Below are positions 36,597 to 39,228 of a DNA stretch of 50,811 nucleotides, piece after piece. The notes below the pieces were generated by a model. The model ran no database searches, was not told where the DNA came from, and saw only the letters and a list, made by a program, of their open reading frames with translations. The stretch is taken from positions 1 through 50,811 of the forward strand of contig JANLSY010000185.1 in NCBI GenBank assembly GCA_031362665.1, given 5' to 3'. This DNA is from Sphingomonadales bacterium. Lineage in GTDB: Bacteria > Pseudomonadota > Alphaproteobacteria > Sphingomonadales > Sphingomonadaceae. Within the stretch, counting starts at the first letter, position 1. Each line of letters opens with the position of its first letter. The translations under genes and the position numbers were made by a program.

Positions 36597-37017
36597 CAAC
36601 CGTATGGCAAATTCAGGCCACACTTTCTCGATCATCGCTTCGGACGTCGAAATTGTCGGCAACCTTAACGCACGTGTCGATTTACATATCGACGGCAAGG
36701 TTATGGGCGATGTGACCTGCGGTAGCATCGTTCAAGGCGAGGGTAGCATTATTGCAGGCAAGGTCACAGCTGAGTCGGCTAAGTTATCGGGTAAAGTCGA
36801 AGGCTCTATTGAAGCCAATGACCTAGTCATCGAAGCCAGCGCGCGGATTATCGGCGATGTCGTGTATAACAACCTCACCATCGCACCGGGTGGTCAAGTT
36901 GAAGGCAAGTTCAAGCACAAATCGTCTGGTGGGGTTCCAAGCATTGCCCGCACCACGGTCGATGTTAGCAAGGTCGCCGATCCGCTGATACTCGGCTCCG
37001 AGTCAAAAGTCGCGTAA
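36523..37017 (+). CDS. Bactofilin (polymer-forming cytoskeletal protein)
   Basis: Beta-helix repeats (SIIASDVEIVGNL..LHIDGKVMGDV..); N-terminal MFSK peptide; overlaps the M23 gene by 74 nt. Confidence 0.93.
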   Translation: MFSKSKPSPEVAPMIPQGANSQRGNNRMANSGHTFSIIASDVEIVGNLNARVDLHIDGKVMGDVTCGSIVQGEGSIIAGKVTAESAKLSGKVEGSIEANDLVIEASARIIGDVVYNNLTIAPGGQVEGKFKHKSSGGVPSIARTTVDVSKVADPLILGSESKVA

Positions 37018-37043
37018 GGCAACCCATCAAATTGTACCGCTGC

Positions 37044-37076
37044 AAAGGCCGTCCTTTTGGGCGGCCTTTTTCTTTT
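37044..37076 (+). terminator. Intrinsic terminator after bactofilin
   Basis: AAAGGCCGTCC-TTTT-GGGCGGCCTTT followed by TTCTTTT. Confidence 0.85.
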
Positions 37077-37100
37077 GAACTTCTGCGATAATCTAGGAAT

Positions 37101-37134
37101 CAAAATCGGCCCGAACCATTTCTGGTCCGGGCCG
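37101..37134 (-). terminator. Terminator of the glnK-amtB transcript
   Basis: Minus strand CGGCCCGGACCA-GAAA-TGGTTCGGGCCG-ATTTTG: 12-bp stem with GNRA loop. Confidence 0.75.
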
Positions 37135-37210
37135 TAAGGTGGATGTTCGCGGGAGGAACACCGGGAGGAGGCGGGGCGTTAAAGGAGAGGAGAGAACGTC
37201 CCGCCGCCAA
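37101..37210 (-). ncRNA. Candidate amtB 3'UTR sRNA with anti-SD (CUCC) loops
   Basis: Minus strand: GGCGGGACGTT[CTCTCCTCTCCTTT]AACGCCCCGCC-TCCTCCC-GGTGTTC[CTCCCGC]GAACATCC, then the terminator. Confidence 0.6.
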
Positions 37211-37220
37211 GCTTTGAAAC

Positions 37221-38687
37221 TCAATAATTGTAGGCGCGCTCACCATGCGAGGAGAGGTCGAGGCCTTCGCGCTCTGCATCTTCGCTCGGACGCAGACCGA
37301 TGGTCTTGTCGATGATGAAGAACAGGACGGCAGAGCCAATACCTGACCAAAGGAGCGTTACCGCCACCGCCTTGATCTGCGTGATTACTTGGCCTGCCAT
37401 GTCATATTCACCAGCCTTCGCAACCGCAGCGGTGTAATCGATCCAGCCCTGACCCCCCAGGGCTGGATCGGCCACGATACCAGTGGCAATCGCCCCCACG
37501 ATGCCGCCGATGCAGTGAATTCCGAACACGTCGAGCGTGTCGTCATATTTCAGCTTGTTCTTCACCGTCGAGACGAAAAGGTAGCAGATGGGTGACACCA
37601 CAAAGCCAAGGATAATCGCGGTACCCGGATGCGCAAAGCCCGATGCCGGCGTGATTGCAACTAGCCCCGCAACGGCTCCAGAAACCGCGCCCAGTAGCGA
37701 CGGACGGCCATGCTTGACCTGCTCGACAATCGCCCAACTAACCGCAGCAGCAGCGGTAGCGACGAAAGTGTTGATGAAAGCGACGGCGGTGATGCCGTTG
37801 GCTTCGAGGTTCGAACCAGCGTTGAAGCCGAACCAGCCGACCCAGAGGAGCGAAGCACCGATCATCGTCATAGTCAGGCTGTGCGGCGGCGTGGCTTCCT
37901 TGCCAAATCCGATTCGCTTGCCAATCATCAGGCAGCCGACAAGGCCAGCAATACCCGCATTGATGTGGACGACGGTGCCGCCCGCAAAGTCAAGCGCGCC
38001 CCATCCCCAGAGCAGCCCCATGTCGTCGGGCGCACTGACGAGGAAGTCGGGTCCGGCCCAATACCAGACCATATGTGCAATCGGGAAATAGACGACGGTC
38101 AGCCAGAGCACCGTGAACACCATCAAGGAGCTGAATTTCACCCGTTCGGCAAAGGCCCCAACGATTAGTGCAGGCGTAATGCAGGCAAAGGTCATCTGGA
38201 ATATGATGAAAACATACTCAGGCAGATAAACGCCGTTGGAGAAGGTCGCGGCGAGCGTTGACGCGTCTACGCCCATCAACAGCACCTTGTCAAAGCTGCC
38301 GACATAGGGGCTGCCACTGGTAAAGGCCATCGAATAGCCCCAGCCTACCCAGACCAATGCCGCGATGCTGACGATCATGAAGACCTGCATAAGCACGCTG
38401 AGCATGTTCTTGGTGCGGACAAGCCCGCCGTAGAACAAGGCGAGCGCCGGAACGGACATCATCAGGACGAGTACCGAAGATGTCAGCATCCATGCCGTGT
38501 CACCTTTGTTGACCATTTCGGCGGTCGGAACGAATGCAGCAGCGGCGGCAGGTGCCGCCTCGGTCACTGCTGTCGTTGCAGCGGCTGCACCTTCGGCTGC
38601 TTTTTCCGCAACCTCCTGCGCAAAGGCGGGAAGGCTTGCGAACAATGTCGCCCCCGCCGCACCTAGTAATTTCAATGTTTTGGACAT
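37221..38687 (-). CDS. amtB: Ammonium transporter
   Basis: FYGGLVR, FQMTFA, DFAGGTVVHINAG, WFGFNAGS, DDTLDVFGIH; signal peptide. Confidence 0.98.
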   Translation of the reverse strand: MSKTLKLLGAAGATLFASLPAFAQEVAEKAAEGAAAATTAVTEAAPAAAAAFVPTAEMVNKGDTAWMLTSSVLVLMMSVPALALFYGGLVRTKNMLSVLMQVFMIVSIAALVWVGWGYSMAFTSGSPYVGSFDKVLLMGVDASTLAATFSNGVYLPEYVFIIFQMTFACITPALIVGAFAERVKFSSLMVFTVLWLTVVYFPIAHMVWYWAGPDFLVSAPDDMGLLWGWGALDFAGGTVVHINAGIAGLVGCLMIGKRIGFGKEATPPHSLTMTMIGASLLWVGWFGFNAGSNLEANGITAVAFINTFVATAAAAVSWAIVEQVKHGRPSLLGAVSGAVAGLVAITPASGFAHPGTAIILGFVVSPICYLFVSTVKNKLKYDDTLDVFGIHCIGGIVGAIATGIVADPALGGQGWIDYTAAVAKAGEYDMAGQVITQIKAVAVTLLWSGIGSAVLFFIIDKTIGLRPSEDAEREGLDLSSHGERAYNY

Positions 38688-38719: not shown

Positions 38720-39058
38720 TCAAAGCGCGGTTTCGTTGGTGTCGCCGGTGCGGATGCGTAACGCTCCGGCAAGTTCAAATTCGAATATCTTGCCATCGCC
38801 GATCGCGCCGGTTTCAGCGGCGTGTTGGATGGCTTCGATGATGGCTGCGGATTGGTCGGAGGGGCAAGCCACCTCGATCTTGACCTTGGGCACCATATTG
38901 GTCGCATATTCCGCGCCGCGATAAATTTCGGTCTGGCCCTTTTGCCGTCCGAAGCCCTTGACCTCGGTCACGGTCATGCCAGACACGCCGAGCGCCGTCA
39001 GCGCTTCTCGGACCGGGTCGAGTTTGTGCGGCTTGATAATGGCAATAATATATTTCAT
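38720..39058 (-). CDS. glnK: P-II nitrogen regulatory protein
   Basis: KGFGRQKGQTEIYRGAEY (T-loop Tyr), GDGKIF, RIRTG; directly upstream of amtB. Confidence 0.96.
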   Translation of the reverse strand: MKYIIAIIKPHKLDPVREALTALGVSGMTVTEVKGFGRQKGQTEIYRGAEYATNMVPKVKIEVACPSDQSAAIIEAIQHAAETGAIGDGKIFEFELAGALRIRTGDTNETAL

Positions 39059-39090: not shown

Positions 39091-39107
39091 ATGCAAACGC
39101 CGTGCCA
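39091..39107 (-). promoter_or_regulatory. Sigma54 (-24/-12) promoter of glnK-amtB
   Basis: Minus strand TGGCACGGCGTTTGCAT = TGGCAC-N5-TTGC consensus. Confidence 0.9.
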
Positions 39108-39180: not shown

Positions 39181-39228
39181 TTGCCTAATATTTAATCAGT
39201 CTTTGGTGCATGATTAAATATTAGGCAA
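39181..39228. promoter_or_regulatory. Paired NtrC-like enhancer sites forming a perfect 18-bp inverted repeat
   Basis: TTGCCTAATATTTAATCA-N12-TGATTAAATATTAGGCAA; each arm resembles TGC-N11-GCA; 75-120 bp upstream of the sigma54 promoter. Confidence 0.7.

Follow-up and report, generated by a model that had tools for sequence, protein, structure and literature searches.

A conserved structured RNA with a predicted anti-Shine-Dalgarno seed in the amtB 3' UTR of sphingomonads

Introduction

The question raised by this locus is whether the glnK-amtB mRNA of a sphingomonad carries, behind the amtB stop codon, an RNA element with a function of its own. The window, that is the whole stretch of DNA analysed (50,811 nucleotides of a Sphingomonadales genome), had earlier been interpreted from its letters alone. 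This sequence-only reading proposed that the amtB 3' UTR releases a nitrogen-regulated sRNA of the cuckoo/alpha-r14 type, which would block Shine-Dalgarno (SD) sequences through exposed CUCC motifs. No description of an sRNA in the amtB 3' UTR was found in the literature searched, and 'amtB' is absent from the main text of PMC12559287, bioRxiv 2025.12.09.693200, bioRxiv 2025.11.14.688489, PMC10746234 and PMC9731577. The sRNA catalogues of S. granuli or Zymomonas may already list the transcript as uncharacterised, and the alpha-r8 phylogeny (Lagares 2016) might list the locus.

Layout and fold of the element

A three-hairpin RNA lies 3' of the amtB stop codon (at 37221) on the minus strand. Its parts, with the gene that precedes it, are as follows.

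37221..38687, minus strand: amtB, ammonium transporter of 488 aa (Pfam Ammonium_transp, E 5.8e-113)
37167..37208, minus strand: hairpin 1, a variable accessory part with a G+C-rich stem and a CU-rich loop at 37194-37181
37145..37159, minus strand: conserved 15-nt core GUUCCUCCCGCGAAC within hairpin 2 (37162-37142), the predicted anti-SD seed
37135..37141, minus strand: single-stranded ACY/ACCUU spacer ahead of the terminator
37102..37134, minus strand: intrinsic terminator, 12-bp stem (37134-37107) with a GAAA loop; 8 of 9 pairs show two-sided changes

Positions 37101-37210 fold at -50.4 kcal/mol (z = -5.77), which 0 of 200 shuffles equalled. Hairpin 1, the hairpin 2 that bears CUCCCGC and the GAAA-loop terminator were all recovered by folding where the sequence-only reading had placed them. 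The 14-nt loop of hairpin 1, CUCUCCUCUCCUUU (37194-37181), has an unpaired probability of about 1.0, while the first C of the CUCC in hairpin 2 is unpaired only 43% of the time. The U tail of the terminator is short in this genome and longer in most relatives. A separate terminator on the plus strand, 37044-37069, serves the convergent M23-peptidase-like/bactofilin genes and could also halt read-through from the short-U amtB terminator.

The description of an unpaired UCCUCCC linker between the first two hairpins, and with it a count of three exposed CUCC elements, did not hold. Its CC at 37168-37167 is taken up by hairpin 1, in whose stem it faces the 5' GG (unpaired probability 0.01-0.02), and the free bases between hairpins 1 and 2 are only four, UCCC. 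Relatives read CCGCC, CCCCC or CCACC at this position, and only 40 of 167 copies have CTCC in the 14 nt that precede the core. For these reasons two CU motifs, not three, are exposed here, and the conserved unit has one seed. Small ORFs overlapping the element were dismissed because their length and frame vary freely among copies.

Conservation and covariation

The 15-nt core (the GUUCCUCCYGCGAAC hairpin) and the terminator are present in all 21 amtB orthologues obtained from the genus, each with GTTCCTCCCGCGAAC. These came from 25 genomes searched; three of the remainder gave only a second amt paralogue, which is without the core, and one was truncated. Beyond the genus, 80 further genera were sampled, 67 of which gave a match; 70 of 71 matches were examined and two paralogues set aside, leaving 68 orthologous loci. 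The core is found in 52 of these and missing as an intact sequence in 16, which include two degenerate versions (L070, at 39 bits, and L088); kin are non-independent in these and all other conservation counts given here. The original proposal had staked itself on the CUCC loops being kept in amtB orthologues, and for the core of hairpin 2 they are.

A scan of GTDB genomes for the core plus spacer gave at least 119 stretches, of which 96 among the matches listed lie directly behind amtB; the others listed are one contig-edge copy and 22 unrelated stretches without a terminator. Among 80 titled matches, those linked to amtB belong to sphingomonad genera or unclassified Sphingomonadales, four being titled only Alphaproteobacteria/Proteobacteria. 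The genera named among the matches listed are Sphingomonas, Sphingobium, Novosphingobium, Sphingopyxis, Erythrobacter, Blastomonas and Parasphingorhabdus. A covariance model of the element (R1) finds one copy in this genome at 57.8 bits, the next match scoring 25.3. Across 150 class-wide genomes its scores outside the family stayed at or below 40 bits, with no match there placed behind an amt gene. Among 30 amt loci from the class search the core was present only in two family members.

That search also turned up look-alikes. Those in L142 (2122-2185), L132 and L154, amt 3' UTRs from other alphaproteobacterial families, have C-rich anti-SD-like stretches before a terminator, and L142 resembles the core (20.8 bits with the element model). 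It is possible that these are convergent or remote versions of the element.

At gathering score, Rfam gave 0 matches over the window, and what appeared at E <= 10 in 36600-37600 was no better than the noise that terminators produce. The element is a real, family-wide and uncatalogued conserved RNA, and it defines an uncatalogued RNA family across seven named sphingomonad genera.

The 167 distinct copies show what is held constant. The core GTTCCTCCTGCGAAC accounts for 110, a GCGGAC variant for 23 and the CCCGCG variant of this genus for 22; these three differ by one base, while the terminator stem and the flanks vary. A further variant, CCCCAAGG, is found in eight copies and re-forms the stem in a shifted register. 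The four inner pairs of hairpin 2 are nearly invariant in sequence. Its closing pair covaries (UA 62, CG 34, GC 24, UG 11, GU 3; paired in 134 of 157), one stem pair shifts from UA to UG in 24 copies, and the GCGGAC change retains a U-G pair. In an alignment of 64 copies 89.3% of cells pair. Covariation across amtB 3' UTRs, which had been proposed as a check, was thus found for the closing pair and for the structure as a whole, whose score of 0.313 was reached by 0 of 500 shuffles, most two-sided changes being in the terminator.

The distance from stop codon to core ranges from 2 to 133 nt, yet the internal spacing of the module is constant, and where unrelated extra hairpins have entered ahead of hairpin 1, downstream of the stop codon, they leave it intact. 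A near-invariant loop and stem in a 3' module of such mobile spacing fits a seed. In L008, L009, L015, L020, L066 and L116 a palindromic repeat with AAAAGTGGGAACCGGTTTT or a close variant lies between the stop codon and hairpin 1; it looks like a small mobile repeat.

The operon and its promoter

Upstream of amtB lie glnK and the sites expected to control both genes.

38720..39058, minus strand: glnK, PII protein (Pfam P-II, E 4.8e-28)
39093..39107, minus strand: sigma-54 -24/-12 promoter of glnK-amtB, TGGCAC-N5-TTGC
39182..39198, minus strand: proximal NtrC-type palindrome, 17 bp, TGA-N11-GCA
39211..39227, minus strand: distal NtrC-type palindrome, 17 bp, TGC-N11-TCA

The NtrC motif is given as TGC-N11-GCA (PMC10746234). 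A consensus sigma-54 promoter and NtrC-like sites had been claimed for this operon, and both were located. The sigma-54 site is kept in 16 of 16 genus loci that take in the glnK upstream region, and the glnK promoters of relatives also show paired NtrC-type palindromes. Perfect TGGCAC-N5-TTGC[AT] sites number only three in the whole assembly; one of them is in G000:C127 (minus strand), near position 1196 of the reverse strand, upstream of a start codon. There is no terminator between amtB and the element, from which it follows that operon transcripts should include it.

Relation to known sRNA families

Of the known families, alpha-r8 (SuhB of Sphingopyxis, MmgR, SisA-D of Caulobacter) comes closest to the element. 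Alpha-r8 RNAs are recognised by a weak hairpin followed by UUUCCUCCCU in single-stranded form, then a terminator; most also have an FGase gene as neighbour (PMC12559287). The amtB element has the same order of hairpin, anti-SD core, short ACU/CUU spacer and, shortly after the core, a Rho-independent terminator. Sphingomonad FGase copies, picked by the core motif, read GTTCCTCCCTGAACCTTGGCC, their core and spacer align with the amtB element, and they too start with GUU; by Pfam, 18 of the 24 motif loci printed are adjacent to an FGase gene. The FGase-adjacent copies and the amtB element have GUUCCUCC...GAAC...UGGCC in common, the FGase-linked copies reading GUUCCUCCCUGAACCUUGGCC and the sequence behind amtB GUUCCUCCUGCGAACCACUGGCC.

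There are also differences. The amtB core, UUCCUCCYGC, is half-paired, with GUUC in the stem, in contrast to the single-stranded alpha-r8 core; its GUUCCUCCYG sits in the covarying hairpin and in this genome matches the alpha-r8 10-mer at 8 of 10 positions. The amtB element lies within an mRNA 3' UTR and not beside an FGase gene. Rfam suhB (RF00519) has no match at the locus at E <= 10, nor in six orthologous loci at E <= 0.05. This model under-detects sphingomonad alpha-r8, as a true FGase-linked copy (L036) scores 33.6 bits against a cut-off of 41. A loose family-wide pattern, matching in 132 of 301 genomes and too unspecific to be diagnostic, gave none of 30 loci at amtB; what it exposed was the FGase-linked alpha-r8 copies. 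Since the FGase set was selected by motif and scores only 11-15 bits with model R1, below the terminator background of 25, we call the element alpha-r8-like and not a member. From sequence comparison, it is likely to be a divergent sibling of SuhB, MmgR and SisA put under Ntr control by its position.

The assignment to the cuckoo/alpha-r14 family fared less well. Cuckoo RNAs have two to four hairpins, each with CCUCCUCCC, on variable stems, and the family list given in PMC4615179 is without sphingomonads. Rfam ar14 (RF02344) gave no match at E <= 10 in 36600-37600, and the element is not among its four genome-wide matches at E <= 1. The loops here, CUCUCCUCUCCUUU and CUCCCGC, are not identical CCUCCUCCC copies, and the sole CCUCCUCCC straddles the base of a stem. 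The cuckoo rule of conserved loops on variable stems is true of hairpin 1, but hairpin 2 shows the opposite, an invariant stem; moreover hairpin 1 is dispensable, unlike the cuckoo pattern. The likeness to the family (RF02344; NfeR1, RSs0680/CcsR) consists of C/U-rich anti-SD loop motifs and, in many copies, two adjacent hairpins. A link to nitrogen is also shared with NfeR1, whose targets are given in bioRxiv 2025.11.14.688489. However, NfeR1 is described as having its own sigma-70 promoter and being repressed by NtrC (PMC10746234; PMC7143759), whereas the amtB element would be NtrC-activated. Elsewhere in the genome, ar14 matches G000:C214:3415-3527 (plus strand) below its threshold (39.5 of 58.8 bits), immediately behind a small lipoprotein-like gene; this stretch has three hairpins, two of them with C-rich loops.

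A third comparison is with the enterobacterial GlnZ, which comes from the 3' UTR of glnA, an NtrC-regulated mRNA, and is freed by RNase E cleavage on either side of the stop codon (PMC9731577). Both RNAs belong to a nitrogen-assimilation mRNA whose 3' UTR contains a conserved seed and a terminator; as in 3'UTR-derived sRNAs of the GlnZ/CpxQ type, the seed behind amtB lies downstream of the stop codon and ahead of the shared terminator. GlnZ differs in host gene and lineage and has a proven target, sucA. No GlnZ-type Rfam match was obtained at the locus, and the sucA leader here has no GGAGG-type complement.

Proposed mechanism and alternatives

On balance we lean towards an NtrC-induced 3'UTR sRNA with an anti-SD seed, probably released by RNase E. 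Nitrogen limitation would raise glnK-amtB transcription from the sigma-54/NtrC sites, the element being co-transcribed with amtB. Cleavage by RNase E at 37220/37219 or 37211/37210 would then yield an RNA of about 110-118 nt, which would pair its UUCCUCC seed in trans with the ribosome-binding sites of other mRNAs and repress them. Pairing may depend on Hfq, and the genome presumably encodes an Hfq-like protein, judging by its motif. By analogy, targets could be carbon-uptake (TonB-dependent receptor, TBDR) or carbon-storage mRNAs. The part of the sequence-only reading that stands is an RNA, conserved, structured and bearing an anti-SD motif, in the 3' UTR of an operon of the sigma-54/NtrC type; the cuckoo identity does not stand.

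The putative cleavage sites lie at and just behind the stop codon.

37208..37221, minus strand: predicted candidate sites for RNase E; RN/WUU is matched exactly at the stop codon, 37221-37217, and the conserved AGCUUGG forms the foot of hairpin 1, 37214-37207

They were chosen by sequence, using the RN/WUU consensus from Salmonella (PMC5222698), and the AGCUU foot motif of the window departs from it. Ahead of hairpin 1, 129 of the 167 copies have a U-rich foot motif (shuffles give a mean of 22.6 and a maximum of 39), an enrichment that is suggestive only, because the pattern was derived from the same sequences; strict RNWUU is found in only 66 copies against a shuffled mean of 24. Of the 167 copies, 105 have a CU motif in the interior of hairpin 1. 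In some genera the hairpin is absent altogether, and in some genomes the core begins 2-9 nt after the stop codon. Hairpin 1 is likely to be a 5' stabilising stem that in some lineages bears a second CU seed.

Among the candidates and partial screens run, no conserved trans target of the seed was found. The best match in this genome is folE, with 11 nt the top of 2,381 leaders (gene starts being the rough gene calls of this analysis), but the match is kept in only 3 of 18 other genomes of the genus and in none of 12 other genera. Also rejected were gdhA, which turned up in only 24 of 60 genomes and with a variable SD, and phyR, whose leaders vary. Two seed-plus-ATG pattern screens of ten genomes gave no orthologue common to genomes among 60 of 574 matches. 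The leaders of glnA, glnB, gltB, glnD, sucA, icd and gltA, identified by motif among the same rough gene calls, have no notable complement, and phbB was not found in this genome with the motif used.

As for the suggestion that GGGAGG-type SDs such as that of the TBDR in the window are possible targets, the GGGAGGA is real, and it is kept in three of three close orthologues with an upstream region; it is also unspecific, 31 genes here having RGGAGGA. In a crude TBDR-like set strong G-rich SDs occur in 8 of 28 genes, against 151 of 2,390, an excess which strong translation alone could explain.

The alternative that survives best, though we judge it unlikely, is that the element acts in cis, its hairpins stabilising the glnK-amtB mRNA, binding a protein or folding onto the operon's own ribosome-binding sites, with no free sRNA. 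The element is always fixed behind amtB, and its invariant stem sequence would suit a protein site. Stabilising hairpins, on the other hand, seldom require an invariant loop sequence. In self-pairing, GUUCCUC could engage the amtB SD of this genome (GGGGAAC) over 7 bp, and leaders of the form G[GA]GGAA are frequent among amtB orthologues that have the usual core, compared with 79 of 2,390 genes here. Yet the pairing stands only at the 20th percentile of all leaders, and it is missing in the core-bearing L014, L016, L017, L061 and L065 and in five of the six CCCCAAGG-variant loci printed.

Less probable still is that the 3' end of amtB contains a separate sRNA gene with a promoter of its own, in which case nitrogen control could not be deduced from the operon promoter. 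Primary transcripts are frequent among 3'-end sRNAs. The stand-alone alpha-r8 siblings are reported each to have unrelated promoters of their own (PMC12559287). A crude scan of 36950-37500 found no sigma-70-like site, however, with 0.2 expected by chance, and the absence of a terminator between amtB and the element means that operon transcripts must include it in any case.

It is very doubtful that a released fragment serves as a decoy, pairing with a G/A-rich regulatory RNA of the CrfA kind or titrating a protein that binds C-rich RNA. CrfA pairs with the alpha-r8 core of SisA-D (PMC12559287), and an invariant 15-mer without a conserved mRNA target is what a single RNA partner would lead one to expect. 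Against this, the longest perfect complements elsewhere in the assembly (85% complete) are eight 11-mers in unrelated places, none reaching 12 nt. That the hairpins are chance stem-loops at a terminator is scarcely credible: loss or degeneration in 16 of 68 orthologous loci would suit it, but it is already contradicted by covariation and by a non-coding 15-mer that stays near-invariant among genera in which the AmtB C-terminus has only about 40-90% match to the query.

Returning to the released sRNA, a broader reading, which we hold only tentatively, is that an alpha-r8/MmgR-type seed was captured into the glnK-amtB 3' end early in the Sphingomonadaceae. The transcript would then give rise, throughout the family, to a regulatory RNA that holds back TonB-dependent carbon uptake and PHB flux in nitrogen starvation, competing with its stand-alone siblings and with any CrfA-like sponge. 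MmgR has been reported to be NtrC-induced and to limit PHB (PMC7143759), and SuhB, with Hfq, to repress phbB and a TBDR (bioRxiv 2025.12.09.693200).

If it is a released sRNA, the element would parallel GlnZ in the Alphaproteobacteria, with another gene as its host, and would show how an sRNA seed comes under nitrogen control once it is placed behind an NtrC-driven mRNA. Natural variants (UGC, CGC and CCAAGG loops, with or without hairpin 1, or lost) make the function of the seed directly testable, and tractable strains that bear them are used for biodegradation.

Separate alpha-r8-type copies in the genome

The genome also holds one suhB match and two more alpha-r8-like copies apart from amtB. 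The first, G000:C143:708-783 (minus strand; locus L161), is above the Rfam suhB cut-off at 41.9 bits and divergent from a LysR gene. It is likely to be the counterpart of S. granuli SuhB, which a preprint of December 2025 describes as the only characterised sRNA in Sphingopyxis granuli TFA. The second, in G000:C59, is an FGase-adjacent copy (ACCTCCCTGAACCTTGGCC plus terminator) downstream of the FGase gene at 883-1620; the Rfam suhB search of the genome at E <= 1 did not list it. The third, G000:C180:1913-1990 (minus strand; L163), has a perfect UUUCCUCCCU core and lies downstream of what we take to be argF and an Hsp33-like gene. A similar copy, L053:1456-1519 (minus strand), is found 74 nt behind a gene that is presumably also Hsp33-like, and these last two copies are possibly a second 3'-end sibling.
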